DNA of 64,000 nucleotides from Cyanidioschyzon merolae (Eukaryota), in assembly GCA_000091205.1 (NCBI GenBank), contig AP006487.2, one strand, 5' to 3'. Shown here piece by piece: positions 2,902 through 55,055 of the stretch. The number at the start of each line of letters is the position of its first letter. Position 1 is the stretch's first letter. The translations under genes and the position numbers were made by a program. The notes under the pieces were generated by a model. That model was not told the DNA's origin, did no database searches, and was given only the letters and a program-made list of their open reading frames with translations.

Positions 2902-5540
2902 TGTAAGCGTAGGGTACTCTTAGCTGTGCCAACCTCTCCCGACACCTTTACATATCCCAGAGCGTGCGAGTTCTGAACCCGAAACGCTACTCAGTGGAAA
3001 GCGCTTGTCGAGTGTCGACACGAGCGCCGCTTCCCGTTCCCCGGCAGCAGACCAGCGGCAGCAAGCGACGATTCGGGGGTTCAGGGAGGTGCCGATCCGC
3101 AGCCTGCTGGGACGGGTGCGCGCTCGCCAGCAACGCAGGCCGCCGGATACCGGGGCATGTCCACGGTGCACTCGCAGACGGCGTCGGGGTAGGCACGGAC
3201 GGCAGAGTGGGTATCCGTATGGGCGCTTGAAGGGAGCCTGATTGCCGCAGAGGTCCTCTTCGTGATTCATGGAACTTGAACGAATTTATGCGGCATGCAT
3301 CTTGCTTCGCTGGCTCTCGATAACAATCGCGCAGCCGTGGAAACCTTTGTTCGACGCATTGATGCCGCACCCGATAAGGACTAGGGAATGGAGTATGCGA
3401 GAGCCCGCTCCGTGCATCGCTGATGGTGTACGCAGCCGATAGCTCTGTTGCGCGCTTTCGCTTCAAGGAGCATCGCTGGGGACGCATTCGATGCATGCTG
3501 GTCGGTTTCATACCGAACAGAATTTGCGGTCGATCGACGATGACTCCAGAGCGTTCGACCCGAAGTTGATCGAGCACCAAATGTTGTTCAGCAGGTAGCT
3601 TCTGATGGAAGCTTTTGTTGCTGGTTCGCGGTGATGGACTCGGCGGTTGCCGATGTCTGGTGTGTTCTCGTGCGTTGCACGTTCGCGCACTGCGCCTTGG
3701 TCAGATACGAACGAAGCACGGATGTGCTCGTTTTGTTTCTGCGTTACGATCTTTTCTGCAGTTTTTGAAGATGAACTGCGCCGTCATTGGAAGTTTGCGT
3801 GTAAGAGCTTATGGACTTGCATGTAGCTCTAGGACTTTCGGTCGACTTTTTTGGAGTTGATGCTTCTCCGCTCGAATTCTGTTCTACACGGGAATCGAGA
3901 TGATTCTCGTCGCTCCTGGACCAGCATTCGTGCAAGAACTGATATCACGATACAACTCGCACGTATAGGCTTCCATTTTCCTCCTCGCCTTACGTGCAGC
4001 ATATTCAGATCACGGAAAAATCAGTTGTTCGATGTTGCTGTTTCAACGCAAGTTGCGTGCGCTGCAATTGGCGCCACTGGATGGACATGACACAAAAATT
4101 TGGTGTCGTCCATTGACGATTCGTTGAAAAGCACATGTGAAATGTTCTCGGAACATGTCACGTAAAATAACCAATTCCATTCCAAGTCCGTATTCTTGTA
4201 AGTTTTCGATCAAAGATGAGACGGTGCTCCAAAAGAGTATGGTACCTCCCAGGGGATATGCCTCCAGAATCACATGGTTTCGCTGTTTGCATGGAAAAAA
4301 GTTCTTGGGGCTCGGATTTTCCGCAAAGAAACGATCTCTCTCAAGGAGAAAAGCGTCATCGCTTTGCACGAAGCAAGCGTGGACGGATCCGAATTCGTCG
4401 AATTTTATCCATTCCGGACGCTTTTCCAGGTACTTGTTTCTTCATGGACAACAGCGTCGCGTTCCGTAAATCCTCGATCGAATGGGGCAACGAGCGTTTC
4501 TCTGTGCTGCGGTCAGAACACTCGCTGAAGAGATTTGGTAGCAGAAGCCCATTTTCGTACGGTACGGAGCTCGCGGGCAGGGTAACCGTAGACGGAATCC
4601 AATGGGACCTTCTGAGCCCGTCAAGCACATGTACCGAATGATATGGCAAGCGTTTGCACGCAACGCGGCAGCTTCACGAGCAGGAGATGTGCTTGACATT
4701 TGGGATCACTTGACGACCGTCAAGTTTCACTGCTGCAAAGCTAGCACCGAGGCAATATACAAAAGCATGAAAGCGGCAAAAAAGCCTCGATCGCATCTTG
4801 TGTCTGTGCATGAACTGCGTCACCAACAGGCGGATGCTGCGAAATCGGGAATCAAACGCCGCCACCTGCATCCTTCGGCTCTTGACAACGGAACTGGGAT
4901 CACAAGACACTCGTGCGCATTCAGAGCCGTAGACTAGAGATAGCAAAAGGAAGCTGTGCCCAAAAATTCCACAAACGCCGGTGTTGATCGTATTCAGAAT
5001 AGTCATAAACTTTGGTGTGAACGCCCGTGTTTTTCCCAGTGCACTTTTTTTCAAGCACGATTGCAATAGCAAAGCGTCTGGTGCAAGAGCGTTGCAATCG
5101 CCGTCGCTCCCAGGATACCGATCTGCCGTACGCGCCGCTGCAGGGTCCGCGGATCGCGCGCCCGTGCCAAGCAACGCATCCGCCCTTGGAGCGTTACGCG
5201 CAATGCATCGATGCGATGCATTGCGCTGCGCGCTGCAGGATACCCGCCTGCAGCCGATGCCGTGCGGTGTTCGATCTCCGCATCGACTTGCGTTCAGCGT
5301 TCCAGGGGTTTCGGTTACCGCTCAGCGGCACCTAGGAATCAGAACGCTGTGGAACAGAGCGGTTCTAGGTCTAGTGGACTGTGCCATTTAAATTCTAGGA
5401 AACTTGAACGTTTCTACGGGAGCAATACATCGTCAGGAACCCCAAAACATTAAAGTGTGGGAAGCTGTCGCCACGCGCTGCAAAGGTGCCCGCGTACGGG
5501 TGCGAGCTGCCGACTGTACCGAACAGAATTCGGTCTGAAA

Positions 5541-7387: not shown

Positions 7388-8689
7388 ATGCTCGCAAGTG
7401 CCCGCGCACTGAACCGATCGCTGACTCAGCGAACTTTTTCTTTTGCTGGATTCGGGGACTCGCGAGTAACTGGACCTCACGCGAGCTCTGTCCGGCGCCT
7501 CTGCACTGGGCGCTTGGGTGCTGGGGCAGCTCGGCTTCCCGAGAACATTGCGCCAAACATCCTGCGGGAACTGACAAGTGCATTCAGTGCAGGTAAAGAA
7601 AGCCCGGTTTCGATACGAGAACTGCGCCGGGCGCTTTTTGACACTGTGACAGGACTTTCACCTGCATATGTCGGTCACGCCAAGGCGCTGGCGCTTCTCG
7701 CCTGGAAGGCACCTGGGCACTATGCTGCACTGCGCAGCGTCTTGTTGCGTTTATCCATAATGCGACCAGCCTGGTCACCGAAGCATATCCTCGATATTGC
7801 GAGCACCTCTGGGGGAATGGGCATCGTAGCTGCTCAGGCAACATGGCCCTCTACGAAACTCGATGCCGTGCTCCTGCACTCACACCTTGAGGCGACCGCG
7901 GCGTGCCAAACGTGGCTGCGTGCGGATACGAAAACGCGTTCCTATTTGGAATCCCCTGACGACTATGACCTAATCACCGCCGTGCATTGTCGATCTGATG
8001 GCGGCGCTTACGAACGAAGCCTCGACTTCTTCGAGCAGCTTTGGATGCGCTGTCGGGGGATGCTCGTGATCATCGAGCCCGGTTGTGCTGAAGGTTTTGC
8101 CCGTATGGAAGCTGTGCGCAGCCATTTACTGCAGCGCTTCCATTCCTCCGTGAAAGTCGCGGCACCGTGCCCCCATTCCGGTCCGTGTCCGCTGAGCACG
8201 AAGCACAATACCAAGATCGCGGCGGAGCGGGGCGAACACGGCTACCGCCACAACTTTTGCCATTTTGCTCAACGCTATCATCGAGATCCATCCCTGAAAG
8301 CGTTCGGCGCTCTGGATCGCGAAGGAAAACGTATGATGCCCTCGCATCGGGGTCATGCTCTGCGCAGATACGCTTACGTTGCGCTGGAACGAGTCCAGGA
8401 GGACGACGGCGACGACGCTGCGCGCGCCGCAACGCAGTCACAGGCTCCACCAGGTCGAATTCTGCGGGAGCCGCTACGACGTGGAGGCCACGTTGTCATG
8501 CATGTCTGCCAGCGCAACGGCCAAATTGAACAGCACACATATACGCGTCGCAAGCACGCAGACGGAACCTATCAAAGAGCGCGGCATGCTGCCTGGGGCG
8601 ACGAATGGGACGCTTCTGATCGAGACGCAGCATGTGGACTCGCTGATGCAGAGACACCGCTCGACCGTGCAGGGACGAATGTGTCCTGA
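7388..8689 (+). CDS. Rsm22/METTL17-like mitochondrial methyltransferase (putative)
   Basis: 434-aa ORF (real ATG at 7388 after a GTG). Methyltransferase-like central region (ILDIASTSGGMGIVAAQ) followed by a cysteine cluster (APCPHSGPCP ... FCHF) reminiscent of the CPHxxxCP Fe-S/zinc motif of the Rsm22 family. Confidence 0.5.
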   Translation: MLASARALNRSLTQRTFSFAGFGDSRVTGPHASSVRRLCTGRLGAGAARLPENIAPNILRELTSAFSAGKESPVSIRELRRALFDTVTGLSPAYVGHAKALALLAWKAPGHYAALRSVLLRLSIMRPAWSPKHILDIASTSGGMGIVAAQATWPSTKLDAVLLHSHLEATAACQTWLRADTKTRSYLESPDDYDLITAVHCRSDGGAYERSLDFFEQLWMRCRGMLVIIEPGCAEGFARMEAVRSHLLQRFHSSVKVAAPCPHSGPCPLSTKHNTKIAAERGEHGYRHNFCHFAQRYHRDPSLKAFGALDREGKRMMPSHRGHALRRYAYVALERVQEDDGDDAARAATQSQAPPGRILREPLRRGGHVVMHVCQRNGQIEQHTYTRRKHADGTYQRARHAAWGDEWDASDRDAACGLADAETPLDRAGTNVS

Positions 8690-8814
8690 TCAGAGCCAGA
8701 AACAATGATTGTACCAGTCGCTCATGATCGAGCGGCCCAAGCGAAGGTGGCGGACAGCCGACTGCCTCGCGAGCAGTGCCCTACGCAGCAGTAACGCGAG
8801 GAACGTTTGCTGTA

Positions 8815-8855
8815 GCGCGCTGTGCTGTGCTGTGCTGTGCTGTGCTGTGCTTTGC
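8815..8855. repeat. (GCTGT)n microsatellite, ~7 units
   Basis: gctgtgctgtgctgtgctgtgctgtgctgtgctttgctg read directly. Confidence 0.9.
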
Positions 8856-9567
8856 TGGATGGGATACATCTTGCACAGGGACGCGCGATAAGCTCCTGTC
8901 GCATGGCTTTTAGAGCTCAGTGATGAACCGGCTCCAGGTGGGCGCTTCTATCGGCACCAGGTGTGAAGGCGCGGGCTTCTCTGATGCTGCTTCTCGTCCA
9001 GAAAAGGATGTCGAAGCCCGTCCTCATCACCGGGCAATCGGTATGGGTACCTCACGGGCGCTGCGCTGGAGCACTTTATGGATCCCCACTACCGAATACG
9101 ATACGCACCACGCCGTCGGCGATGCGCCACCGGCATGCCCTCATCTAGTGCGGACACGTTGCACGACGACACGCATGCGGCCGTGCGTGTGTTCCGCGCT
9201 GCCCATCACCGCTGGACACGTGCACAGCATCAGTTCGCGAACGGTGCGTGCGCGCGTGCATGGCTTCCGAGTGAGCGGCGGCGGGATATGCGTGCACAGG
9301 ACACGTGTACAGGTCGCATGCGTGCGTGCATGCGTGATAGAAACGAAAACACGGCGGCAGCGCCCTGGAGCATCACATCGTGCTTTCTTTTCTTGCTGTC
9401 GTTCATTCACCAAAGCGCATTCTTTTTCGGGATGTTACCGCTTTCACGGATAGACCGGAATCAGTTCCGCAATGAATTACGTGTGATCGGAGTATAGCAG
9501 GTGATCTGGAGTATCGATTACGATTCGCAATTGTCGGCAAGAAACTCGTGGGTTTACTGCGTGTGCG

Positions 9568-10959
9568 TCACTGCTGTTCGTGCAGTTCACGATCGAGTGT
9601 TTCCGATAAAGCCGTCCCGATGTCTGGTGTGTATTTCGCATCGTCCGGCGCGAGGAGCTCCTCGTCGCTAGCGCGCTCCTCTGCCAGCGACACGAAGAAT
9701 CGGATGGCTAACTGTTGTGCATACGCCGGCGTAGCGTCGTCCAGGGCGTGCGCACCCGGGGCCCCCAGATGGCTCTGGAACCATGCCTGGACGCCAGCGC
9801 TTAACTGCTCGACCCGCTCCGTGGGGTACAGACGCAGAACGGCAAGCCACTGGTCCGGAGAACCTGGCAGAACGGTTTCCGATTCTCCGAGGACAAGCCG
9901 GGCCGAGTCCCCAGCAATGCACAGCGGGATACAGCCAGCGCTCATGGCCACGGCGATACGTCCCTGCCAATGCGGACTCGCCGAAACCAAGCAGAAACGA
10001 GTGCTCGACGCCAGCGACCAGAGGTCCAGAGCGTCGCTGCTGGTGAAGAAGCGAACGTCAGTCTCGGCATACCAGGACGCCACGTAGAGTGATTCGGACG
10101 GCAGCAGCTGCGTCAACACGGAAACCGTATACGGCCGCGATTCCGTTGTCTTTTGTCTGGAGCTTGGCGCGTCGAATGCATTCGGAAAAGGCGGAACGAG
10201 CCAGCGCACTTCCAAGCTTGGCACGCTAGTGTCGAAGAGCATCTCAGTGGAGGACACGATAAGCGCAGTCTCGCCTGCGAGGATGACATGGCGACAGCGG
10301 CGACAACACGACTCTGAGCCACGGTTCGCCGCCAGTGCGCGACAAAGCGCTCGTGCAGCTTCGATGGGGCCGCGCGATGCAACGCTGGGCGAAGCGCTCG
10401 CCAGTAGCGTCACCAGGATATCAGCGGCGTCCGGGTCAACAGTGCGGTACGGATAGTGCAGCGCATACTGCTGCGCCGCATTCGCTGCCAACGCAGCGTA
10501 CGCTGGTACGTACTGGGATGCACTGCCGCCCCAGAGTTGACTATACAACCACCCAGGATACACGAAAATGCGTGGGGGCGTCAGATTCTGGGCCTTCGAC
10601 GTCCAGGCCCAGGACGTCGTTGACAATGTGGCAAGTGATTCGAGCGCACTGATGCGTCCCAGCTGAGCGTTCGGCGCTGACGCGGGTTCCGCGGTAGCCG
10701 CTTTCGCCCGGAACGGCGCCGAGGGGGTGTCCCAGAACGCCGCCGACGGGCTATCGCGGCTGGCGGCTAGCGCATCCAGCCAGTCCGCGAGGTTACCTCG
10801 ATCCGGAGCCATCAGTCGCAGCGTCGAATAGACTGCCAAGCATGCAATAATAAGGTGCACAGCCCAGCGTCGTAGGTGGTAGAGACTTGCGTTGGCGGAC
10901 CAGCGCCGCAGCAGCGACGCGTACGGCGTGACGCTACCTGGAAAAGGTGTCCGCAACAT
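9568..10959 (-). CDS. Exostosin-like (GT47-type) glycosyltransferase, type II membrane topology (putative)
   Basis: Long ORF; ORF-track start at 11130 is a GTG, first ATG gives MLRTPFPG... A single N-proximal TM helix (WAVHLIIACLAVYSTLRLM) precedes a C-terminal region with exostosin-like motifs (FCLVSASPHWQGRIAVAMSAGCIPLCIAGD...LP). Confidence 0.45.
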   Translation of the reverse strand: MLRTPFPGSVTPYASLLRRWSANASLYHLRRWAVHLIIACLAVYSTLRLMAPDRGNLADWLDALAASRDSPSAAFWDTPSAPFRAKAATAEPASAPNAQLGRISALESLATLSTTSWAWTSKAQNLTPPRIFVYPGWLYSQLWGGSASQYVPAYAALAANAAQQYALHYPYRTVDPDAADILVTLLASASPSVASRGPIEAARALCRALAANRGSESCCRRCRHVILAGETALIVSSTEMLFDTSVPSLEVRWLVPPFPNAFDAPSSRQKTTESRPYTVSVLTQLLPSESLYVASWYAETDVRFFTSSDALDLWSLASSTRFCLVSASPHWQGRIAVAMSAGCIPLCIAGDSARLVLGESETVLPGSPDQWLAVLRLYPTERVEQLSAGVQAWFQSHLGAPGAHALDDATPAYAQQLAIRFFVSLAEERASDEELLAPDDAKYTPDIGTALSETLDRELHEQQ

Positions 10960-24544: not shown

Positions 24545-24930
24545 AAATTAAGGGATGAGCCGGGATGTAAACTCCTGAAGGCCGAAATGGAGGAACGTCA
24601 GCGAAGCACTTCGGATATAGAAAAGCCCGGAGCGCTGTTCGAGCAGCAAATGGCACAGAGGGCACGAGTTCGAGGACTCCGTGCACTGGTGCGTTCAACG
24701 AGCTCCAACAAACGCATGGAGTTCGTGAACAGGGACGAAAACGCTGCTATCAATATCAGACGATTTGCGGTGCCAAAAACGGGACCCGATGAGCAGACCC
24801 GATCCAACGTTGTGGGGTCAGCGTCTCAAACTCGAATTGCATATGGATAAACAGAAACAGGTAGCAGCCGGCAGGCAGGCAGGCAGGCCGTGCAACACTG
24901 GAAGGCGGCAGCACGTCGGTATACATTGAG
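24545..24930 (+). pseudogene. TnpB/Fanzor-like relic A: C-terminal RuvC-III segment plus conserved 3' non-coding tail
   Basis: Encodes QRARVRGLRALVRSTSSNKRMEFVNRDENAAINIRRFAV, matching the RuvC-III D-x-NAA-x-NI signature of TnpB/Fanzor. Nucleotide homology to copies C, B, D, E continues ~100 nt past the ORF end. No upstream nuclease domains remain. Confidence 0.45.
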
Positions 24931-25276
24931 CGTAACGACGCGAAGCGTTTTCGCTCTGATAACCACATAGCCCAGTCGTCGTATGCTTTTTCTGAGAACC
25001 GTTTCTCGTGATAGTGAAACGCATCGCAGTGGTACTGGTTGCGAATACTTCGCCAGGAAGGGTTTAAAAATCTAGTGACAAGCTGGGGCGTCTCTCCACA
25101 CTCTTGAACGGACACCGGGGACGCCTCCAGTTGCAGCGCACAGTCGTATGAGCTGCTGCCGCGTCGCACTGTACTCTTAAACGGACACGTGGGACACCCT
25201 AAGTTGCAGATCGCGTACCGCTTGTGGCTCTTCGGTGCACCAGCTGAACGCCAGGCTCTCAGGCAGAGGGCGAGCG

Positions 25277-27349
25277 ATGCGACAGCAAACGAACGCAACG
25301 GAGCTACCAGCATGGAAGCACCGAGACGAAATCATCCACGCCGTCAAGAACCACGTTGTTGTGCTTCTACTAGGCACCACTGGTTGCGGCAAGACAACAC
25401 TCGTGCCCCGCTTCCTCGATGAACAGGGCTTCGGTCCCGTCGCGATAGCGCAGCCACGTCGCTTGGCAGCCATCAGCGTCGCCAGACGCGTCAGTCAGGA
25501 GCTATCCTGTCGACTCGGAACATACGTGGGGTATGCAGTCCGCTTCGACGACTGCTCCGATCCCGAGAAAACTCGTTTGCGGTACGCCACAAGTGGTGTA
25601 CTCTTGCGCGAGGCCATCAGCGATCCGCTTTTTCGTCGCTATGGGTCTCTGGTCATCGATGAAGTACACGAACGTCTCATACAGACGGACATTTTAATGG
25701 CGGTTGCACGTCGAGCGCTTATCGAACGCCGCAAGCAGCCGACCTGTGCGACGGACGCTTTCCGGGTGGTGCTCATGTCAGCAGCAGTGGACGTGACGAC
25801 GCTATTGCGCTACTTTCAAAGCGCAGCGATCGGGCCGGTCAGCGTGTGTTCGATACCAGGGAACCTCCATCCGGTCGATATTCTCTACACAGCGGACTAC
25901 TGCGCAGAGCATCTGGATGCGGCGTTGAACCTGGTCCTTCAACTTCATCTCCATCTGGAAAACGTGCCTGGGGATATTCTAGTATTTCTAACTGGCCAAG
26001 AGGAGATCGAACTCGCCGTCAAGCTACTCCCAGAAAGGCTCCGGCGACGGGGTCCGGGAAGCGCGCCGCTCTTTGCGGTACCCTTGTACGCTACGTTGCC
26101 TCCAGCGCAGCAGCTAGCTGCGATCAATCAGAGCCGTCCGCAGACGCTTGGATCCGTTGCTGCTCGCAAGGTCATTTTCGCGACCAATGTTGCCGAGACA
26201 TCGCTGACGATTCCCGGAGTGCGTTTTGTTATCGATACAGGCTTGAGCAAACAACGCATCCTGGATCCATCCCTGGATGCGGATGTTTTGCAGGTTCGTC
26301 CCATTAGTCGAGCACAAGCCTTGCAACGGGCGGGGCGCGCTGGACGCGAAGCCGGCGGTGGCATCTGCATTCGGCTCTATCCAGAGACGCTGTGGCCAAA
26401 GCTCAGCGCGTATCCAGTCCCCGAACTATGCCGTTGCGATCTGGCGAGCACACTCTTGCAACTGTATGCCATGGGTATGGATCAGCCCTGGAAACTGCCG
26501 CTTGTGAATCCACCACCGCGATCCAGCATGGAACGCGCACTTGTTCACTTGCACGAGCTTGAAGCCCTGGACGATCAACTTCAACTGGACCCGCTGCTCG
26601 GTCGACAGATGGCTGGCCTGCCGTTGGAGCCGATGGAAGCGCGTATGGTGTTGGCCGCCAAGGCGCTGCACGAGCCTATGGTGCTCTCCCAGGTAGTGGA
26701 GATTGCAGCGATGCTCAGTGTGGATGCATGGAGCAGTGGACTCTTGGTTGTGCTGCCCGGGGAGCGCCGGATCGATGTTCAGAGGCACTGGCAGCAGCTC
26801 TTTGTCGAGGAGCGTGCTGGCGACCTCGTTACCGCTGGGCGCATACTGCACCAGTATCTGCAGCAGGCACCGCCGCTGCGAAAGCGCTGGTGCATCCAGC
26901 ATCATCTCAATGAACGTTTGCTGTCCGCTGCTGCAGATGCTTTCACTCAACTCATGCAGCTGCTGGAGTGCACCCCGCTATACGCAGCGAATGCGCCGCA
27001 GCTGGACGCGTTGGCAGCGCAGGTCTCTGCGAGCATACCTGCGGAAGTCTCAACGAGAGAACGATTGTTGGAGCTCGTTCAAAGATGTATCTGTGTGGGT
27101 TTCTTCCGGCATGCAGCGCGTCGGGAAGGTCAGCGATCCTATCGGATCATCCGTACAGGGTATCATCCTGTCGCTCTACATCCGTCATCGCTGTACGCCA
27201 GCGGTGCATATCCCGAGTGGATTGTTTATCGAGATTTCATCTACACAAATAAGCCCTATTTACGAGGCATCACTGCGTGTGAGCCCATGTGGATCCAGAG
27301 TAGTCGCTGCTCGACAGCGACGTTTGCATCTCGCGAAGCCTGCAGGTGA
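25277..27349 (+). CDS. DEAH-box ATP-dependent RNA helicase (DHX family)
   Basis: GTTGCGKTT (motif I), DEVHER (motif II), TGQEEIE, TNVAETSLTIPGVRFVIDTG, QRAGRAGR (motif VI), followed by HA2/OB-like C-terminal region. First ATG at 25277 (ORF-track start is GTG). Confidence 0.9.
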   Translation: MRQQTNATELPAWKHRDEIIHAVKNHVVVLLLGTTGCGKTTLVPRFLDEQGFGPVAIAQPRRLAAISVARRVSQELSCRLGTYVGYAVRFDDCSDPEKTRLRYATSGVLLREAISDPLFRRYGSLVIDEVHERLIQTDILMAVARRALIERRKQPTCATDAFRVVLMSAAVDVTTLLRYFQSAAIGPVSVCSIPGNLHPVDILYTADYCAEHLDAALNLVLQLHLHLENVPGDILVFLTGQEEIELAVKLLPERLRRRGPGSAPLFAVPLYATLPPAQQLAAINQSRPQTLGSVAARKVIFATNVAETSLTIPGVRFVIDTGLSKQRILDPSLDADVLQVRPISRAQALQRAGRAGREAGGGICIRLYPETLWPKLSAYPVPELCRCDLASTLLQLYAMGMDQPWKLPLVNPPPRSSMERALVHLHELEALDDQLQLDPLLGRQMAGLPLEPMEARMVLAAKALHEPMVLSQVVEIAAMLSVDAWSSGLLVVLPGERRIDVQRHWQQLFVEERAGDLVTAGRILHQYLQQAPPLRKRWCIQHHLNERLLSAAADAFTQLMQLLECTPLYAANAPQLDALAAQVSASIPAEVSTRERLLELVQRCICVGFFRHAARREGQRSYRIIRTGYHPVALHPSSLYASGAYPEWIVYRDFIYTNKPYLRGITACEPMWIQSSRCSTATFASREACR

Positions 27350-29444: not shown

Positions 29445-32400
29445 CGCCACAGGCAGTACAACCGAGCATTTTGCCAGCAGCACCGCGCATGAGACGCAAA
29501 TCTACAGTTGTTGTGGCTGCATTCCTGTGCAATGACGACGGTTCCTCAGTGTATCGATCTGGACCTGGAATGTACTACGAAATGCTGCAAGCATCGAAGC
29601 GATGCTGTGTCGATATGCACCGGTTCCCCGCTGTATTCATATGCTCGATTCGTGCGGGACACGTGGAGGCTTCGACTCTCTGCGCCACCCTGAACAGAGA
29701 GCGTGCCCGCTACCTATCGCTTGTTACTTGCTACCGGTCTGGTTGGAGCGCTTTCATTGATCTCCTGGGGAACGCAGGAAAAAAGACCAGTTCGAGTCTG
29801 GCAATTGGAAAAGCGTGCCCCAAGTTTGACGCCCGTCTGAAGCATGCCATCACATCCTACGTCGCTGCTAAGGTCGTTTTCCGAATAATTAATTTCAGTT
29901 GGGGCTGCGTCGCCAAGCCGCGGACCCCGGATTTTTACTACTGTATCCATAGCGAACAGCGTAGTGCACTCCACTATAGGAAAACGACGAGTTGAGAGTC
30001 TCCTTTGGCACCTTGCTGACTATGATTTGGATTGCGAACTCCATGTGGAGTCGGTGCTGATCCGTTTTGCGCCAAGGAACAGCAAGTGTTCCATCCTTTT
30101 CCATAAGTGCTGTGGTGCAACGAACCACTTCAGCGAGCTCGAGTTGTAGAATCTCTTCGACAGTCCCTGTATACAGAGCAACTGCCTCTACTGCGCCAGC
30201 AAATGCGCTGATTGCGACTACGCAAGCGGTTCCCTGCTGACCGCAACACTGTGCAAGCGATGCTCAAGATACCGAGCGGTGCTCGGTACGTCCAAGATTC
30301 ACAGCTCCCAAGCTGTCGATTTCGCTTCAGAAAGCTGATCAAGTGGATGCTCCGTACAGCTGCGATTCGTAATGCAAACAAAGCACCAGGATACGCCTCG
30401 AGCGACATTGACCACAGACAGCTTGTAAATATGTCGCGATCGAGTCTATACATCGACTTTAGGGCAATTTGGGTTGAACGTGGGCATATTGCGCCACCCT
30501 CTTGCGCATCTGAGAGCACACCAGCACCCCAAGCATTCGACGCATAGAGGAATAGATCGCAGGCGTCGGGATCAAGCCGTGCCGCTTCCGCATGTCCGGA
30601 ATTTTTGCCGGCGATTGGCCAGATGCACGCTGCTACTACTGGAGCCAGCGCCTGCAGTATCTTGAGTAATCGTCAATTCCTGAGATGTTTTTGGTTGCAA
30701 TCAGAGCAGCGAATGTCCGATTACCCGTACCAGCACGCTCTTTTGGTTATTGTTTGGTTTTCTTGCAGGTATTCGATAAAAAGAATGCATCGTGTCGATC
30801 CGATTACAGTCGCTGGATGAATTGGTATTGTCTGTGGTAGCTCGCGAAAAGAACGGCCCCACCTGTGCCTGTCCTTCTATAATGAACTGGGGCATGAACC
30901 GCTTTTCTCATCGCTCTGATCCGACACGTCAGTCTCCCGCAGTAGAACCCTCCAGAACCTCTCTTCGACTGTTTCCTTGCCGATTGATTGTGTAGCGTAC
31001 TTGGATGAAGAAATACTACCAAAGTCACCGCTGGATTTTGACGCCTCCGTACCGCTAATGACAACGGTGATGAAGAGACCCAGAAATACGAATCGAAAAG
31101 CACGCCTGTATGCTAGATAGTCACGCGTCGAAGAGCGCAAGACTGATCTCGTCGTGAAACGCGAGCGCTTATCACAGGACGAACGAGAGTTCATCTCGTG
31201 CAACGAAATGTCCTTCGGGGGAAATGGTACACCTGCACTTGGCTACGCAAACCGGAGCAAACCACTGTTCTGAAAGACGAGCGAAACGGGACGGACGACA
31301 ACACCAGCCCTAGCAGCGATTTAATCCCTTGATCACCGAATCGTCGCCGAACGGACAAGATCGTTCAACAACTCGTGCTTGGTCGACGTATTCTGTGGCT
31401 TCTTTTTTCCCATTTTGTTCCGTCCGGCTCGTAGGTATCATCGGATTGCGTCAATCAGGAGCGGTCAAGGACACCGCAGCTGGCATCGCAGTTGAGCTGG
31501 TCTCTGTGCTGGCTTGTTTTCTCTGGCTCAATCGAAACGAATTCGTTTTTCCAAGACATCCCAGAGCATTTCTATGTTCATCGATGATTAAACGAATCTT
31601 TCGCGTTCGCGACACCAAAATATGCTGCGTACTTTTACGGATCGCAACCCCCCTTCACCGCGCTCGTCTTGCCTGGCTTTTCTGTTTCCTGCCTCGACGC
31701 GTCTCCTCAACCGATTGTTCATACAAGTTTCGGAAGCGAGATCGCCAGTTGTCTACACTCCACTCGATTTTTCGATCAAACCTTCGCGCGACAACACGAC
31801 ACAAATGTTCAGAGCAGATGATGCGATTCGACGTGAGCGAGGCATCAGCGTTTTGCGCATATGCGTACCAGCATATCTTGCCGCGTCGCCGCGCCATCTC
31901 GACGATCGAAGTATGTGAGGTGCCGGTCCTAAAACGTACCAGGCAAACCTCAGAAAGCAACATCATGTCCGGGTTCAGTTCGGGCGCTTTATGAGGCGCG
32001 CATTGTCGACGTTTTCCAGTCATGGTACTGGCCCAGAAAAGTGGGCACTGTTTGAAGGTATGCTACCGTTCAGAGAGAACACGAGCGATCAAGCGGCGCA
32101 CGCGGACGATCGTTACGGGGCGTTCATACGAGCGCGCGGAGGTCACCAACAGTTTCGGTTGTACAGAAGCAAGAAGCGTACATGCACTCACTTCGACTAA
32201 GAGTTGTAAACGAAAATCTCCGATATGTCGTGTGGTTGGGTGCCAGGCAATGGCGCTGGAAGCACTGGAGCGCGCGATGACTGCACCCTTGCGGACTTGT
32301 GGACGGCGTCCAACGAGTGCGGGAATCGATTCCATACGACTCCCGTAGATGCATTCAGGACGATGCCCTCGCATCAATAGCATGGGTGCTCAATGAAACA

Positions 32401-33692
32401 GGCAGAGAAAAAGCACCTGAAACAGAGCCGGATACACGAGACGGTGTACGTCAGGCCGAGCGAACATCAGCTGGCGAGAATATTGACGACCAGAGGATTG
32501 CAAAAGCGAGATTTCAGGAGCAAAATACCTCGATGTACATCCGGGAATGTCCGGTGTTCGCACAGCGCCCAACAGCTTGGTGATCAACGAACCTTTGAGG
32601 GAATCGCGCAGTACTTCGTGTAAACACGGATCTGAAACGCTGAAGACTTGCGATGGAAAACAACAGTGACCATGACAGCGTGTATTTCATCCATGTTTGA
32701 AGCAAGACACTTGTATGAGACGGTTCAGCAGTCCAGAATGGCTGCCATGCCCCATATATACACATGGAACGGTTTTCCTAGAAATTCATGAACGAATATC
32801 CTGCTCCGTAATTCGACTTGACGATGTACCGACATGCAAAGCGGCGTCCTAGGTGCTCTAGCCTAGACGCCCGCCCCCGAAGACCTGCACGGTGTCGCCC
32901 TGCGAGCCTTATTTACCGCACCATACATCCCTGGGATATTTATGATGGCTCCGGCCTTGAAGATCACGCGTTTGTGTGTACGTCAGCAGCGTCGATGCGT
33001 CGCTCTAAAATCCATCTACACAGGTGTTCACGGAATGCTCGGCATTTAAAAGCGAGCCCGCTCAACTTCGTATACAATGTGTCATGCATGTAGACTTGCA
33101 TTTTCGAACGAGATCCGTCATTGGGGCACCAGCTCGAGACTGATCAAGCATCAAGCTTCGTGCACGGTAGACAGGCTGTGCTATGAACGGTTCGGCATTC
33201 GACGCCAGGCGCTGAACCCAGACTTGCGTCACCGTACAGTGCGTTTAGGGTTCCATCAGCAGTGCCTCGTTCTTTGCGTTCGTCCTGCAATTCTCCAGGT
33301 CATAGAAGCGTATCCGCAGCATGAAACTGTTCAGTGTGAGCCGAAGTAGCAACATCCAGCATAGGCATTGAAGCGCGTGTCCTATAGATTCCAAGTGCCT
33401 GTGAGCGCTCCCGCACCGGCGATGCACCTTCGTACGAGGACGCGCTCCATACCAAGTCAGCCGAAACATTTCCTATGAATCAAGTGAGGCAGAACTCGCG
33501 ATTTGTGCACTAATCCAGAAGCACGCTTTCGGGAAAGCTTAGCAACAGAATTCGGGCGATTATGTTTTGGTCTATGGTCGAGTCTTGGCTGGGAATCCCA
33601 GCTACGCAATGGATACCGACGTCAGGGAAAGCGCTAACGCATACTCGGCACTCTACGGATTATATGAACGAGCCGTTGCCTCCAACAGGGAA

Positions 33693-41799: not shown

Positions 41800-42485
41800 G
41801 TCTGAGCGCGTCTTGTCGCAACGAACTCCAGAGACTGGCATGTTTCGCGTCTCGCATGATACGCTGGCCTCGTTTTAATGTTGCACCTCATTTGTGTTCC
41901 GCTTGCAGGTGCGTGTCATCAAGTGCTTCCTCGCGGGTTATAGCGGACGTGTTCAAAGAGCGTCCATTTTCAAAAATAAACTATCCTAGGGAGATGTGTA
42001 TGTATGAAAATCGGGGATCCTGATGTGCTAGTGTCGCCGGTTTCAACAGAAAAAACGAAAAATTCTCTTCTCACCGACCATCGAGCGAAGGAGAGCAAGT
42101 TTTATGAAAAAGTAGAAAAAGAGAGGAACGGCGGGTGAAAAGTTTTTGTATGCCTGATGTGACGATTACGAGACTGTAACGGGACAGAGGGCACACTGAC
42201 GAAGGCGCCTTGCATTGATGAGTCCCATCAGAGGCAGCAAACGCATGGAATTCGTGAACAGAGACTTGAACTCCGCCATCAAAATCAGACCATTTGTGTT
42301 ACAAAAGGCGAGGCGCGCGGAACTTACGTTAGCGAAAGGTTTGGGACAGCCTCTCAGGTTCGAAGTGTACACGGGACAAATTGAAACCGATATCTGGTTG
42401 CTGGTCAGAAAAAGGCTTCGAGGCGCCTGTGAGTGCGTATCATTTTCCCCTGTCGAGCCGACGCTCTCTGTGGTGCGGCATAGCC
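41800..42485 (+). pseudogene. TnpB/Fanzor-like relic B (~680-bp element; subfamily with relic D)
   Basis: Encodes SKRMEFVNRDLNSAIKIRPFVL; shares ~680 bp of nucleotide homology with 54380-55055 (e.g. gtgtcatcaa[a/g]tgc, atcgagcgaag[ga]aga[gc]caag, acagagggcac, gcattgatg) both upstream and downstream of the RuvC-III-coding segment. Confidence 0.45.
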
Positions 42486-43099
42486 GTTCTGTCTCCGTGC
42501 AAGGACCGCATCGGCCCTGTAGACGCTATCGCCGACGCTCTGGGCATGCACTCGGCGCACGATAGAACGTACGGAACGACCATTATATCCGAGAGAAAGT
42601 ATGGGTTACGGAACGTGGAAGTAAGGCGTGGAATGAGGGATACCTTACAGCGCGCTGATGACGAGCGCAGAATCCGAGAACGCTCGCCACAGCAACCACT
42701 TTGGCATTTTTTCACTGACAAAACGTTTACTTAGGCCAGCGTTCTCCGATTATGCGCTTTTTTCTTTTCTTTCTTTTTTTTCAGTGCGAGGTGAGGTATC
42801 CATCAACCCCCTACCTCCATGTTACATTACCTATACTTCGTCTCGGATATTCTGGTCGTTTCATACGTCCTATCGTGTGTGCCTAGTACCTGCCGTTCCG
42901 TATTCGCGTCTGCGCTTGAACCGCTGGAGCAGATAGCTCATAGGGCTAAAACAGCTTTTCTATACCACAGAGGGCGTCGGCTCGAGGTGTGCTTCATCCG
43001 ACGTAGAATCGGGTCTCGTCGTCAGTTTGTGCTCGTACAGTCTGCGGATGCAGGCTTGCCTTCGCTGCACGACACGCTGGAGAAACTTGGTTGTTAGGA

Positions 43100-46000
43100 T
43101 GAATTCTGGGAGCTGCCTCTCTCCTTCGTGATCATGCATGGAATGCATTGTTGTCGGTTGGCTATGCGGATTTGTGCTTGACACCCACTACAGAAGGAAG
43201 GCGTAGAGAGCACTAAACCCGTGTGCGCATCCGATCCGCTGGACCTTCCGCCTAGAAGGTAGCACGTGAGTTTGTTGGCCACTAATGAGCACTGAGGATC
43301 TGTTAGCGAACCATCAGTTGCCAGTGCTGCACTCAGAGTGAGTGTCCGGCCTTCGACTATCACGGTGTTGCCGAGCTGCTGCTGTCCTTCGAGGAGCTCG
43401 CTGCGCTCCTGCTTCTAGCGCGGCCACTGTAGGCCTAAATATGTCAGCGTCTCGGGGATTTCGTCTCGATAGCAGGTACAGTGTGACTCCCAGTGCGATT
43501 CCAGGGTTCCTATCCGGCTTAGAGCCGGTGCTGGTAGCCAGGAGCCACCAACGCTGATTTTGGCGAGCCACTGGGTACCTCGAGCAAGTCCCGGGAATTC
43601 CAGCGCCTCCCACCAGTAATTGCATGTGTATGCTAGGTTGTAGTTCCGGTATAGAGTCAAGCCGGCGTTACTCGCGCGACTGGTACTGTATCTACGTTCC
43701 CATATTGTTGTTCGGACCGTTCGCTTGAGGCGACGGGAGAATTCTATATTCCTGGGGAATGATTGGGTAGCGTGTTTTCGCCTAAGAGGCGCTTCAGCCA
43801 AATCTGCGCTGATTTCATCCAAGTGATCTTGCGGTGCGTTGGGGTCTGCATGGATATCCGACTGAACCAGGTGTTCATGGTTGGCCCTTTGCCCCATATG
43901 CGTGCCCGGCAGCCTGCTGCTATCGCCTCTGTCGAGGGTATTTGGAGTTCAAGTCCGAGTGCCAGCAGGTTGGTTGCTCTGCTCTGCATTGAGCATCCAA
44001 CTACAACGAGTCGCATTGCCCTGTTGGCGGCTGTCTGCAGACGCGAGGCATTTGTGTGCTTCATGCCGCACCATTCAGCACCACAGGTCGCAGGCTGGAT
44101 GATACATATCCTTAGTGCGCTGGTACGGATTGCTAAGGGGATAGAGGGGTCGGATAAGAATGGGCATGCGATCGCTGTACGTCTATGCATCTTGGCGATC
44201 ATCTCGTTAACGTGTGCCTTTTCGTCGAGCGTCGGCGTGAGACAGACCCTAGGTAGCGATATTTTTCCACGATTGGAATTTCCTGATTCTGCAACCGCCA
44301 CGAGCGATTGCGAATGCTCTGCGAGTCTCCATGGATGGCCATGACGCCGCACTTCGATGCTCCTATGCTCATCTCCCAGCGATCGGCCCAGGCGCTGACT
44401 TGTTCCATGCTAGCCGCAAGCGTTTCCGGGGCGGGTGCCAACAGCACGACATCGTCCGCAAATAGAAGGCCTGCGAGGCGGTTCCCATATGGGCGCTCCC
44501 CATCGGGCATCTCCACAGTCTATCCACGGCACCTCAAGCCCGTATTGTCTGTAGTTGTTAAGCAGATCGTTGATGAAGATGTTGAAAAGGAGCGGGGATG
44601 CAGGATCGCCCTGTCGCAGTCCACGGCGGATTCTTATCGAAGGGGTTCTTGAGCCGTCGCCTAGTCGGATGCGCATCCACGAGTCTGCATAGAGCGCACG
44701 GAAGAACGCTAAGCACTTTGCGGAGACTCCGGCTCGTTCCATCTTCATAAATGGAGCCTCATGCGGGAACGTGTCAAAGGCCTTTTGGAAGTCGACGAAG
44801 CATACGTAAGTTGGTTGTTGGTCGCTAATGAAGCGACGTTGCACCACTTCAATGAGGGTCAGGGCATGGTTCATGCACTCCTCGTGGCTCCGGAATCCAG
44901 CCTGTTCTGGGGCGAAGAACTTGCGTTCCTGGAGGCCGCTGTGGATACGGTTCGTGAGCATGGCGCGAAGTAGCTTCATGATTGACGGGATGAGGCGCAT
45001 AGTCCGGTAGATGTTCATGTCTGTGTGTGTGTGGGAGTCCTTTTTGAGGATCGGTACGACCTCGACAGCCCTCCGTACATCTGGGATGTACGCTTCTTCA
45101 AACATGCGTTGAATGAGCTCCAGAAGGCGTTTGCCTAAGATTGTGTCAGGTTCATCTGGTATCGATGGTGTCCCTGTTGTCCCGTCTTTTGGGGTCGCCA
45201 GTTTCATCCACTCCGCAGGGATACCGTCGATGCCAGGTGTTTTGCGATTGCTTGAGCATAGCAGAGTCCGAACAGATTCAGGCCAGAAAATTGGGTCGTT
45301 CCATTCCGGTACCGGGTCGAGGCGCGGTAGTTCTGCAGCATATCGGTGCCAATAGATTCGGTCTTAGCAGTGCCCAGTTGCGTCTTCATGTAATTCTGTG
45401 CCGTGGTCCGTCCAGGCCTCATTCACTGAGGCACGCTCCGTCCTCAGCGCTTCCTTTTAACAGTTGGTGTGAGCCCCAAGCACTTTCTTGGTGGGTCCAG
45501 TCTCGATCGGATGTAGCCTGGGGTTTCATCTTCGTTGGTGCTCTTCAGCATAGATTCCGCCAGGGAGGCCATTTTGCGGTTTCGATCCTCTCGTTTGTCT
45601 TCTCTGGAAAGTTTCTTCGTTCTTTTGATAGCTTCCTCATGTTGCGCCTGTAGCGCCGGTAGCGCTGCCTTCGCTTCCTTGTCTCCGGCGTTGGCGCGTA
45701 TGGCGGTGCGGTTGACAATCTTGTTGAGTCGGTGGCATTCATGAATCCGAGTTTTGGTACGTCGTTTGAGGTACTGCGGCTTGCTACTGTTGTGTTCAGG
45801 TGCAAGCAGTCCCAATTTTCTGGCAATCTTCTGATTCCCATCTACAAACTCGCGTGCCAATTGGTCTGAAGATTTGTATTCACGGCTTTTCGGATCTTCA
45901 GCGCTGTGAGCAGGTGCCTGGGATTGGCGACGGCTTTCTTGAGTTCCAGCTGGGGTGCCCTTTCGGGGGATACCTTGTGATGGGCTCGTTTGGGAGTTCT

Positions 46001-46350
46001 TCTTTCTATTCTTCTGTTTTTTCTTGCTGGTCTACTTCTTCTTCGGGCTCTTTCCTGAGCTGCTTTCTCTGGTTATTTTGCATTTAAGGGGATCATGAGG
46101 TTTCTGTGTCTCTTTCTCCGTACCTCGTTGGGTCTCTTTTCCAATTGTAGAGTCCTCGACTTGTATCAGTTCTTCATTACTGTACTGGTAATTCGATATC
46201 TCGTGGTTAAATACCGAGGCGATCCCGCTAATATTCCATGATGCGAAACCTATCGAGTCGTAGCGCATAAGGGAATAGGAGTAACGCTGCGGTACTCCAG
46301 AGATACGTTGTCGATTTAGACGCAGCTTCCACAGGGTGTGTGAGAGCACA
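43100..46350 (-). mobile_element. Degenerate non-LTR retrotransposon (LINE) with APE endonuclease fragment and reverse transcriptase
   Basis: Minus-strand ORF fragments in series. 46032-46349 carries an APE N-terminal motif (IGFASWNISGIAS). 45444-45860 is the RT N-terminal region. 44410-45207 carries RT domains 1-5 (FRSHEECMNHAL, DFQKAFDTFPH, RGLRQGDPASPLLFNIFINDL). 44199-44516 carries FADD (LLFADDVVLLA). 43415-44352 carries the thumb/C-terminal region. Frameshifts occur between fragments. Confidence 0.8.
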
Positions 46351-47348
46351 TGCCACCATTGCCTCCTGCATTCCAGTCGTTCACTGAGTGTCTGCCGCAG
46401 CGCTAGCGTAGAATCAGATGTACATTAGTCAAGGTCGATTCGAATGCGAACTTTGTCTTTCCGGACGCGTGAAGCTACCCTCAACCATTGGGAAAAGTCT
46501 GCAAACCACCATTTCAGCGGCTTTGTATCCGCTCCCCAAACACATAGGCGGGCAAGTCGCTTATTCCACTTTCGACAGTGAGCATACTGCCAGCTGTCTT
46601 CCAAAGTATCCGCCGAGATTGTTTCCAAAGTTGAGGTAGGTACTCAAGGTAGAAGGTGAAACTGAGCCCGAATTCAGGGATGGATCCAGTATTTGTGCCC
46701 GAACCTGCAGCGTTGTTTCGGGAGCAGCGGATGACTGCGCTCAGAATTATCGTCATCATTCTCTGCTACTGCCTACGCCCCTCCGTTCGTTGCGGTCAAG
46801 GCCCCTGGCGTGGACTTCCTTCGCAGTCGCTCAAGCACCCCGCGTTAACCCACTTTCAGAGGTTCTCCGGAAAGACTAGACCCCTTAGGCGGACGTGGTT
46901 TGTGGGGCTTTTAAGATAGTGGTTCCTTGATAAATAGTTTGCGACTAGTTTGCATCGCGCTCGGTGAGCGCACCTCGGAGATCGGGCAGGCATGAGACGC
47001 TACGCGCATGCCACTGTTGAAGGGAAACACGTGACCTTGATCAATAGCGTGTTGTTCTGCTGTAAAAGTCGGATTCCCGTTGAGGGCGTAGCAAAGTATA
47101 GTTTTCAGTTCATTTCTGTTTCAACCCTCAAGTAAAAATACTCGAGTGTTTTTTCGCAGTATATAAGAGAAGCGTTCAAAGAGCATTCTTTTTAAAAAAA
47201 CTAAAAAAAGGAAAAGTATGTAGGAGCAAGTCCACGATCCTGGAGGCCCACTGTCGCAGGCTGCCAGAAAGAAAACAAAAAACAGTGCCGAGTCCAGAAG
47301 AACAGGGAGAGAGAAGAAGAACCGAAGAGGGGAGGCCCTACGTCGAAG

Positions 47349-48990
47349 GTGGCAAGAAAGACGACTGTACAACGAGATGGTGGTGAAAGCCTTTCTTCTT
47401 GGACATATCAAGGATCCCTACAGGGAAAAGTTGCGAGACGCTATCGAAAAACGTGTCGACTCGTATTCCGAGAGTATTATCAAGGCGTCGTCAGGGCTGA
47501 TGCATTTGGCGAGGGAGATGTATCGCGACATGGCGCACATGGAAACAGTCGAGATTCCGGACGAGTTTCTCGACATGACCTTTATTTGTCAGCTAATGCT
47601 TGGTACAGCGGAAACGCGGAAGGAAAATGTGCTAGTGCACGCCCTCCACGAAGAACATACCTTTTACAGCTTCAATGGTACTCGATACAAGGTGACGGAG
47701 ATATTTACATCTATGGGGCGATGAAGTACCTCACGAATCTGAAGAACCATTTGACAATGAACCTCGAACGTTTCACGGTACGCGCCGTGTGTGCACTCTA
47801 CCCGGGCCTATCTCGCAAAGGAAAATGGGCGATTATCAATGGCATCACGAAAGATCGTAAGCATGAAGATGAGACGGATTTCGTTGACAAGAAGGCGTCA
47901 AACGAGAGCACGAATGAAGCTTCTGTAATCCGTGCTGCTATTCAAGAGCACCGTGCAATCCTGGGACTGGATTATCCAGCAGAAAAGATATCAGAGTTGA
48001 AAAAAGATAAGGAAACATACGATCGCCTCATTCTACGGTATTTCGTGTTTCTGGACCAAGAACTCGAACGCGAGGCGGAGATGAAGGTGAATAGGGGAAA
48101 AATGAAGAGTGGGAGAGACGGAAGGCTGTCCTAACGGGGAAGCGCTTCAACGTGGTTCCATTGTGCAACATCAAGTCAGATTTTGTGACCATCGGCTCCG
48201 GCGTCCTTTACGGCATCATGAAGCAGATCAGTCCGGAGTTCAGTGTCAGCAGGGAGGACTTCACCGGCGAAAACCGGGAGACGTACTGCAAGAGTATCTT
48301 CGATTTCAAACGTCTGAGAGTGAGCAAGCAAAAGTTGTTTACTGGGATGATCGTAACCGATGGAGTAGAATTGTGTGCAAACTATCGGCGGTTGAAGAGA
48401 GATCGGCCAGTCCCTCCCTCGGCTGCGCCCGTGACGAAGGATCAAGAAAACAAAGAGGTGTATCCTGCGACGCAGGAGGTGGAGGATAGAGACCTTGTCG
48501 TTGACGTGACCAAGGATGAAGAAAGGGAGGAGGCGGATCTTGCGACGCAGGAGGTGCAGGATTACGACCTTGTCGTAGGCGTGGACCCTGGGAATACGAA
48601 TGTCCTAACCATCGCAGCACCGAAGCGTGCGGAAGATGGAAAAGTGCCAGCGGAATCCTGAAGATATACAAAAGTACGGACCGCTGACGGAAGGGCGAAT
48701 GGAAAGGAGAGCGAAAGTTCGAGGATTGCTTGCATCAGTAAGTACAACCAGTGATGGCAAGAAACGGATGGAGTTTGTGAAGCGAGGTTTTAATGCCGCA
48801 ATCAATCTACGGAGATGTGCGGTGCTAGAGAATAAACCTCCAGACTGGACAAGAAGGAACCTTGTTGGACAATCTCTCAAAGGTGAACTATATGAGAGAA
48901 AGCTGGAAGCAGTAGTGGGTAGCCAGTCCAAAAAGACGGGGGGGGGGCGTCTGCACGTCAGCTGGAGACGATTTGTCTAAGGCGCGTTCG
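47349..48990 (+). pseudogene. TnpB/Fanzor-like OMEGA nuclease gene, most complete copy (C); frameshifted and internally deleted
   Basis: Collinear ORF fragments in frames 1, 0, 2, 0 (47377-47724, 47349-48134, 48152-48661, 48627-48980) join with single-nt shifts. Fragment 3 ends with a RuvC-I-like motif [17 protein letters not shown]; fragment 4 carries RuvC-III KRMEFVKRGFNAAINLRRCAV. RuvC-II and the zinc finger are absent (only ~70 aa between RuvC-I and RuvC-III). The 3' tail is homologous to relic A to ~48965. Confidence 0.5.
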
Positions 48991-49117
48991 CCGCCATTGC
49001 TGCGTACTGCCGGCGTCGTTCGACTTCGAACGGCGTTCGTGACCGAAGCTCATCCGCGGATCCAGCTGCACGCCGCTGCTTCATTCAGGACGCGTTGTAT
49101 AACAACGTCAGGGAACC

Positions 49118-49438
49118 ATGACGAAAGGAACATCTTCCAAGGGTCGCCGTCACGGCAAATCACATACACTCTGTATCCGTTGTGGACGACGATCGTACCA
49201 TATCCAGAAAAGTACCTGTGCGAGCTGCGGGTACCCGTCGCCGCGAAAGCGGACTTACAACTGGAGTTTGAAGAGCAAGCGGCGACGCACTACAGGAACT
49301 GGGCGCATGCGGTACTTGAAGACGGTTGCTAGACGGTTTCGAAACGGGTTCCGCGAAGAGAACACTCGTAAGGCGATAAAGAGGACAGTGGCTGCCGCTC
49401 CCGCACAGGAGAGCGGCCAGGAAGCAGCGAGCTCTTGA
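49118..49438 (+). CDS. RPL37: 60S ribosomal protein L37e
   Basis: [81 protein letters not shown] is a near-full-length match to eukaryotic L37e including the C4 zinc ribbon. Confidence 0.95.
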
Positions 49439-54379: not shown

Positions 54380-55055
54380 AAGTCGCGCGTGCCGTGGAGG
54401 CGAACGCTGTCGTTCATTCGGCAGCGCTCGAGGCTGGCACCGACTTGCCCGACTAGATGCACTACTTTTTGCTCTTTGACCACAGTGAGATTGATTAGTC
54501 AGGTGTGTGTCATCAAATGCCTTATTCGGTTTATAGCAGATGGGCTGCAAAGTGCGTTCATTTAGAGAAATAGAGAATATAAGATATAGGTATGGAGATT
54601 GAAGTCGAGGATCCTGGATTGCCTCTGTCCACGGGTGTCGGAAAAGAACGGGAATTTTCTCATCTTTTCGACGATCGAGCGAAGAAGACCAAGAAGAGGG
54701 GAGATGGACCACAAAAATGTGTTTGCCCGACGGGGCGATGACGAGAATCTAATCGCACAGAGGGCACGAGTTCTGGCAATCCCTGCATTGATGCGTTGCA
54801 CCAGATGAACTGCATAGAACGGCTCGTGAACGGAGACTTCGACGTCACAAGCAATATCAGGAGATGTGCGGTGCTGAAAACGAGACTCGCGGAGCTGACG
54901 CGAACTAAATTCGAGTGGCAGCCTCTAATACCCCCAGTGTGCCTGGATAAAAACCGCAACCGATGGCAGTCGGCGGATAGAAAAAGACTGGGCGGTGTCT
55001 GCGCGTGGGCAGCTATATGTACTCTCGATGGTGGTAAAACATTGCACGTTTTATA
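54380..55055 (+). pseudogene. TnpB/Fanzor-like relic D (~680-bp element; subfamily with relic B)
   Basis: Encodes AQRARVLAI... and ERLVNGDFDVTSNIRRCAVL in adjacent frames (RuvC-III region with a frameshift); extensive nucleotide homology to 41800-42485 on both sides. Sits ~90 bp upstream of the PTC7 start, on the opposite strand. Confidence 0.45.

Follow-up and report, generated by a model that had tools for sequence, protein, structure and literature searches.

The closest described relative of the locus reported here is CMe-1A, a Fanzor1-bearing mobile element of Cyanidioschyzon merolae that is present in ~150 copies, each with ~80% identity to a consensus of 3169 bp (Bao & Jurka 2013, Mob DNA 4:12; PMC3627910). 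As published, CMe-1A is a non-autonomous element of unknown class with no terminal inverted repeats (TIRs) and an undetermined target-site duplication (TSD), some copies still contain an intact Fanzor1 open reading frame (ORF), and its 5' 635 bp constitute a separate repeat, TE-N2_CMe (PMC3627910). Fanzor proteins are recognized by a signature that combines a DPG motif with a repositioned glutamate, and many of them, not all, carry a zinc finger (Yoon et al. 2023). Here we analyzed a 64,000-nucleotide stretch of C. merolae DNA (contig AP006487.2, assembly GCA_000091205.1), hereafter the window, and found that positions 46952-49037 are almost certainly a dead copy of the CMe-1A core (coordinates refer to the plus strand unless stated otherwise). 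The locus is thus already known as a kind, its family having been catalogued in the C. merolae genome since 2013. The host is identified by the DEAH-helicase ORF at 25235-27349, whose product is identical at 690 of 690 residues to PRP43 of C. merolae 10D (XP_005535662.1). A preliminary description of the window had read the locus as the remains of a eukaryotic nuclease gene of the Fanzor/TnpB type, with the central part of the RuvC domain gone, and the family profile, the fold of an intact relative and the alignments to the published element presented below bear this out.

The CMe-1A consensus DNA and the 734-aa CMe-1 protein were taken from the supplements of Bao & Jurka (2013). Blastn aligned consensus 648-2193 with window 46956-48506 (84.6% identity), consensus 2117-2251 with 48505-48639 (88.1%) and consensus 2767-3145 with 48634-49015 (85.6%), the decayed core as a whole (46952-49037) corresponding approximately to consensus 648-3145 without 2252-2766, at 84.6-88% identity. 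At the protein level, the conceptually repaired translation of 535 aa matches CMe-1 with 71% identity over aa 53-449 and 80% over aa 628-734, and both proteins end in ...HVSWRRFV. In public metagenomes, the repaired translation retrieved 93 relatives, the best of which, P0001 (752 aa), matched with E=2e-224. The number of relatives, the best E-value and the 71% and 80% identity to CMe-1 show that the ORF and motif signal is real and far beyond chance, and the direct DNA and protein alignments identify the window locus as a copy of the published family.

The core begins with a 5' non-coding leader (46952-47217) that aligns to consensus 648 to ~905, 5' of the consensus ATG, and the original start codon follows at 47218-47220. 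The start at 47349 that was initially assigned to the locus therefore falls inside the gene. Four collinear ORF fragments with RuvC-I-like and RuvC-III-like segments are present as first described (47377-47691, 47688-48101, 48095-48643 and 48654-48977). Placed on the gene, fragment A (47377-47690), beginning MVVKAF..., represents the N-terminal part of the REC/WED region and stops at a 1-nt deletion, and fragment B (47691-48092) stops at a second one. Fragment C (48095-48633) spans WED, an acidic linker and RuvC-I and stops at the junction of a large internal deletion, while fragment D (48636-48980), 80% identical to CMe-1 aa 628-734, contains RuvC-III and the C-terminal tail and ends with ...HVSWRRFV and TAA. 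The RuvC-I motif (48566-48616) includes VGVDPGN, with its catalytic aspartate (48584-48586) in a Fanzor-type DPG context and in the column aligned to the "DP" motif of the Fanzor1 proteins SpuFz1 and PpFz1. The RuvC-III motif KRMEFVKRGFNAAINLRRCAV occupies 48762-48824. The remaining 48981-49037 form a 3' non-coding tail with a terminal hairpin, with which the element ends on the right and where a candidate omega-RNA scaffold would end. Junction alignment and folding place this hairpin, GGCGTCGTTCGA-CTT-CGAACGGCGTT, at 49012-49037, its loop being 1 nt shorter than in other copies.

The acidic linker just 5' of RuvC-I is a tandem repeat. Tandem Repeats Finder delimits it at 48430-48583 as 2.1 units of 75 bp (25 aa), compared with 1 unit in the published consensus and up to ~5 in P0001. 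In intact copies, the region is longer by 150 nt, i.e., two more 75-bp units; the difference is in frame and the copy number varies across the family. The region is predicted to be disordered in the structural model of P0001 (residues 384-469).

Lesions were called against five intact copies and the CMe-1A consensus. The start codon is directly followed by TAG (47218-47223), where the consensus reads ATG GAA, and further indels are found in the N-terminal 50 codons. Single-nucleotide deletions at ~47690 and ~48092 shift the frame; the preliminary description had counted three such shifts, of which these two stand, while the one placed near 48640 is a deletion of 515-522 bp with its junction at 48633-48634. 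This deletion corresponds to consensus 2252-2766 and removes ~178 aa (CMe-1 aa 450-627), including the RuvC-II glutamate (VDEFRTS, E603) and a helical insert. In RuvC-III, the codon at 48786-48788 has changed from GAT to GGT, replacing the aspartate of the family with glycine, so that the window copy reads K-R-G-F-N-A-A-I-N-L in place of RDFNAAINI in the consensus; the D-x-NAA that had been attributed to this copy is not there. Moreover, one base has been lost from the loop of the right-end hairpin, and a decayed retroelement has taken the place of the ~647 bp with which the consensus begins.

Could the locus nevertheless be a live Fanzor gene, its broken frame being an effect of short introns or of errors in the sequence? 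Both single-base shifts do lie within short runs of G and A. However, intact relatives have one unbroken ORF with no intron at either position, and the extra base is present at ~47690 in all five intact copies and at ~48092 in four of the five. Introns and base-call errors alike leave the TAG at codon 2, the loss of an invariant glutamate in the ~520-bp deletion and the aspartate-to-glycine change without an explanation. It also counts against a live gene that C. merolae has only ~27 introns and that the 10D assembly is finished and was built from Sanger reads. We therefore regard a live gene as very improbable. With a stop at codon 2, two frameshifts, the ~520-bp deletion, the loss of the RuvC-III aspartate and the 5' loss, the window copy is a pseudogene that is not rescued by splicing or error correction and cannot make the nuclease.

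Several results weigh against reading the locus as the remnant of an RNA-guided Fanzor1 carrier. The repaired window protein alone has no significant match in Pfam, NCBIfam or PDB sequences, and the link to Fanzor is carried by the family profile and the fold of a relative, not by the window copy. The last ~22 nt of the window copy are unlike the published consensus and represent a different right-end subtype. With respect to an omega-RNA, RNAalifold and a manual three-stem model gave pairs that are mostly conserved, not covarying: the three stems have 84.7% of cells paired, shuffles have 83.6%, and 17 of 500 shuffles attain the covariation score. Folding z-scores of the copies are mixed (-0.65 to -5.1; -0.79 for the window copy), synonymous diversity is not reduced near the 3' end of the family copies, and the 64-kb window has no match to any Rfam family at or above the gathering score.

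At the level of the family, the relationship to Fanzor1 is clear. Searches of Pfam, NCBIfam and PDB sequences with single relatives, or with a shallow profile of 19 sequences, returned nothing significant, the sole Pfam label on the relatives being PF26935 (domain of unknown function DUF8286). An exhaustive HMMER search collected 2018 cluster representatives at E<=1e-3, and an alignment of 80 diverse full-length family members was converted into a profile, termed A2. Searched against the PDB, A2 matched the Fanzor1 proteins of Parasitella parasitica (PpFz1; 9cf0, 1.2e-23), Spizellomyces punctatus (SpuFz1; 8gkh, 2.1e-16) and Guillardia theta (GtFz1; 9cer, 2.7e-11), and its GxDPG, DEFRT and NRDxNAAxNI motifs line up with the D, E and D counterparts in all three. 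The profile check that had been proposed for the repaired translation thus turned out in two ways: the translation by itself matches nothing in Pfam or the PDB, as would be expected of an unrelated protein, whereas the 80-member profile matches three solved Fanzor1 proteins.

The structural comparison agrees with the profile. An AlphaFold2 model of the intact relative P0001, built on A2, has a mean predicted local distance difference test score (pLDDT) of 83 and a predicted template-modelling score (pTM) of 0.81, with residues 384-469 as its sole disordered stretch. In Foldseek, the model superposes over its full length with SpuFz1 (E=9e-17, template-modelling score 0.72-0.74) and also matches PpFz1 and GtFz1; Cas12 variants rank next, at E~3e-3 only. 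The bilobed arrangement of a REC/WED lobe and a RuvC/TNB lobe is accordingly predicted for the intact relative P0001, on which the model was made. The catalytic triad, which corresponds to D383/E541/D606 in SpuFz1 (PMC11423790), is D431/E603/D672 in CMe-1 numbering, and its columns in A2 hold D in 80/80, E in 80/80 and D in 79/80 members, with the aspartate and the glycine of RuvC-I both invariant (80/80). Among 30 element copies, codon diversity over aa 481-720 is 2-3 times as high at position 3 as at positions 1 and 2, indicating that the RuvC half of the family is under purifying selection.

The signature that Yoon et al. (2023) give for Fanzor is present in the family. The RuvC-I aspartate in its DPG motif is present in the window copy as well; the repositioned RuvC-II glutamate (D-E-F-R-T-S) is found in all 80 intact relatives and in CMe-1 (E603) and is deleted from the window copy; and the RuvC-III aspartate (N-R-D-x-N-A-A-x-N-I), present in 79/80 relatives, is a glycine there. 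A C4 zinc finger, which is part of the Bao & Jurka motif and reads CCCC in SpuFz1, is absent between RuvC-II and RuvC-III from the CMe-1-like clade: the median number of cysteines between E and D is 1, and CxxC occurs in 2/80 members (A2, P0001 residues 656-725). Most of this segment is missing from the window copy. The proposal that RuvC-II and the zinc finger had both been deleted from the window copy is therefore right for the RuvC-II glutamate, but the clade has no zinc finger to lose. Since many, not all, Fanzors carry this finger, its absence from the clade does not exclude Fanzor1 membership.

A likeness to Fanzor that arose by chance, with the DxNAAxNI-like segment belonging to an unrelated protein family, would fit the lack of a direct Pfam or PDB match of the repaired protein and the DUF8286 label as the only one on its relatives. 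It is incompatible with the full-length agreement of profile and fold with three Fanzor1 proteins of solved structure, whose catalytic motifs align, and with 71-80% identity to a published Fanzor1 of the same genome. Taken together, the profile, the fold and this identity rule out the unrelated-family explanation, the probability of which we consider negligible, and support the assignment of the window copy to a Fanzor1 family.

Intact family members encode a TnpB-derived nuclease in which a REC/WED lobe is combined with a RuvC domain that is split. From the homology to SpuFz1, GtFz1 and PpFz1, we infer for intact members both guidance by RNA and a biological role: intact CMe-1 would bind an omega-RNA derived from the right end of the element and cut guide-matching DNA beside a target-adjacent motif (TAM). 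From the analogy to TnpB and Fanzor (PMC10432273), a guide RNA of the element would be expected to end at its right boundary, and an omega-RNA at the hairpin-bearing right end of CMe-1A is a plausible candidate. The consensus ORF reaches its TAG inside a GGAGAC...GTCT hairpin, which leaves a non-coding tail of only ~60 nt.

Loci that lack Fz but keep conserved omega-RNA regions have been described as "ghost" loci (Saito et al. 2023), a precedent for the idea that the coding part of the window copy is dead but its right end (~48900-49037) still yields an omega-RNA used in trans by intact CMe-1. The last ~400 bp are indeed kept at 81-86% identity, including the sharp right end and an 11-bp terminal hairpin that is predicted consistently across folded copies. 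Against a retained guide function, covariation gives no support, the window copy folds with a z-score of -0.79, the divergence of the 3' tail (0.218) is close to the neutral rate as gauged by position 3 (0.20-0.28), and the hairpin loop of the window copy has suffered a 1-nt deletion. We consider such trans-acting use improbable.

The ends of the element were compared in 71 related loci fetched from Joint Genome Institute (JGI) metagenomes. On the right, homology stops at the same nucleotide (window 49037), after ...GGCGTCGTTCGACTTTCGAACGGCGTT, in >35 loci with unrelated flanks, and every copy that was folded has a predicted terminal hairpin of 11-12 bp. Left ends vary: many copies begin at the equivalent of 46952, others run hundreds of bp further, and some extend 51 bp to the left of this position, to GYGTCGGACACGTGTCC..., which includes a 12-bp palindrome. 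In the copies with the longest left extensions, the core comes after ~720 bp, and these in turn after a 3'-terminal piece of a second Fanzor element, which is 68-71% identical and has the other right-end subtype. Such a head-to-tail arrangement is seen at ~7 loci (in L069, the second element at 8518-8927, then 8950-9670 and the core from 9671; likewise in L035, L004, L005, L026, L062 and L072). A single true 5' terminus could not be defined for the element, as the leftward extents of the copies differ, and because the left ends are heterogeneous, no left-flank motif that could serve as a TAM candidate was derivable from these loci. A search for TIRs or a TSD in the family loci found none: the left and right ends bear no inverted-repeat relationship, and no duplication is shared by the flanks of >30 copies.

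The right end consists of GGCGTCG followed by the TTCGA-CTT-TCGAA hairpin (window 49012-49037, the same position in >30 loci). One class of left ends, GGACACGTGTCC (L033, L065, L024 and L011), consists of G(C/T)GTCG followed by the palindrome GACACGTGTC. With "GGCGTCG + palindrome" at both, the two ends resemble repeats in direct, not inverted, orientation. This layout is reminiscent of the ends of single-stranded-DNA (HUH-type) transposons.

The left end of the core abuts a decayed poly(A)-type retroelement without long terminal repeats on the minus strand (42707-46951), the long interspersed nuclear element (LINE) noticed at the outset. Its reverse transcriptase (RT) domain, RVT_1, was recognized with E=5e-19 in two frames (45363-44202), and no endonuclease domain was detected in 42707-46951. 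The element has a short terminal A-run at 42707 and homology to TE-N2 at 42810-43013. This 4.2-kb element occupies the place of the TE-N2_CMe module, which was not found in the window copy (consensus 1-647 is gone); the window copy is either truncated or one with an alternative 5' module. Position 46952 is also the published boundary between TE-N2_CMe and the core, and TE-N2_CMe shares a segment with the 3' region of the RT element. Close by, at 42453-42658 (+), lies another RT-element fragment of ~200 bp, 70-78% identical to other copies, so that two RT-element 3' ends stand tail to tail, ~50 bp apart.

The same junction recurs elsewhere. In L001 (8402-9671), it involves an RT copy with a different 5' truncation, and L003, L008, L046 and others have the window-type junction at their starts, with different right flanks. 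In a further set of loci (L015/16, with L015 659-860; L022, 6354-7551; L030, 7917-8781; L013; L019), the orientation is reversed, so that the RT element meets the same CMe-1A nucleotide with its A-run 3' end; truncation points differ and the outer flanks are unrelated. Two simple accounts of the junction were rejected. Had the RT element merely inserted into a longer CMe-1A, the missing left part would lie beyond it, but that part is present neither there nor elsewhere in the window, nor in the loci that have this junction, and an adjacency unique to the window locus is contradicted by the same junction at loci with unrelated outer flanks. The RT element is thus more than a chance neighbor of the CMe-1A core. 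One conceivable, though doubtful, explanation is that the left boundary of the core at 46952 is a site of recurrent, defined DNA breakage: the Fanzor element would be nicked at a fixed end, by a putative HUH-type transposase or by the Fanzor ribonucleoprotein itself, and the breaks at the left end of the core would be healed by retroelement cDNA.

Beyond the core, tblastn and blastn with intact relatives and the published consensus located family relics at four other positions, which agrees with the five copies initially counted in the window. They are an old fragment at 24555-24836 (+), 73% identical to consensus 2737-3020; a divergent Fanzor relic with stops and an internal deletion at 31805-32571 (+), with 27-37% amino acid identity to P0001 and to another relative, P0083; and two heavily deleted relics at 41913-42288 (+; consensus 826-894 and 2862-2944) and 54527-54903 (+; consensus 847-964 and 2908-2987). 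The relic at 31805-32571 keeps its RuvC-II region as TTPVDAFRT, with alanine in the place of the glutamate. The surrounding genes are eukaryotic and encode a PAK-type kinase, TFIIH p62 and a DEAH helicase. As already noticed, the element lies directly upstream of RPL37: its right end at 49037 is just 81 bp 5' of the start codon of the intron-less RPL37e gene (49118-49438, +; E=2e-25), on the same strand. With a gap of 81 bp, the relic fills most of what would be the RPL37e promoter region.

As one dead copy of ~150, the window locus itself tells nothing new about RNA-guided nucleases. The family adds a few modest points. DUF8286 (PF26935) appears to mark a large Fanzor1 clade (~2000 cluster representatives) beyond the reach of standard TnpB/OrfB models, leaving Fanzor1-type proteins unannotated in red-algal and metagenomic data; its members have an invariant D-E-D triad under purifying selection, yet lack the zinc finger of characterized Fanzors and TnpB. 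The sharp hairpin right end and the hotspot left junction may help to classify a transposon whose type has been listed as unknown since 2013, and a recurrent break at the left junction, if true, would give the first mechanistic handle on the movement of this unclassified Fanzor1 carrier.

Compared with the CMe-1A consensus, the window copy shares the genome, 85-88% DNA identity (consensus 648-2251 and 2767-3145), 71-80% protein identity and the ...HVSWRRFV end, and the family loci of the window copy show the same inter-copy identity of ~80% and the same absence of TIRs. It differs in lacking the TE-N2_CMe 5' module (1-647) and 2252-2766, in its nonsense codon, two frameshifts and aspartate-to-glycine change, and in its right-end subtype (22 nt), the TTCGA-CTT-TCGAA hairpin standing where the consensus has ...GCGTTTTTCTTTTGAAAGGCG. 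Compared with the Fanzor1 proteins of solved structure, SpuFz1 (8GKH, 9CEU), PpFz1 (9CF0) and GtFz1 (9CER), the CMe-1 clade is only 13-15% identical in sequence, has no CCCC zinc finger in the NUC/TNB domain and carries a disordered acidic tandem-repeat linker; yet the predicted full-length fold of the intact relative is alike, and the DPG of RuvC-I, the "alternative" glutamate in D-E-[FY]-[RK]-T-[ST] and the RDxN... of RuvC-III are common to both. Bacterial TnpB of IS200/IS605 elements (e.g., ISDra2) is more distant: no direct sequence or fold match to TnpB ranks above the Cas12 variants, the CMe-1 family has DPG rather than D-hydrophobic-G and a repositioned glutamate (Yoon et al. 2023), its host is a eukaryote and no TnpA is present. 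Nevertheless, TnpB and the CMe-1 family have in common an RNase-H-like split RuvC domain with a D-E-D triad, encoded by a gene of a mobile element with palindromic ends.

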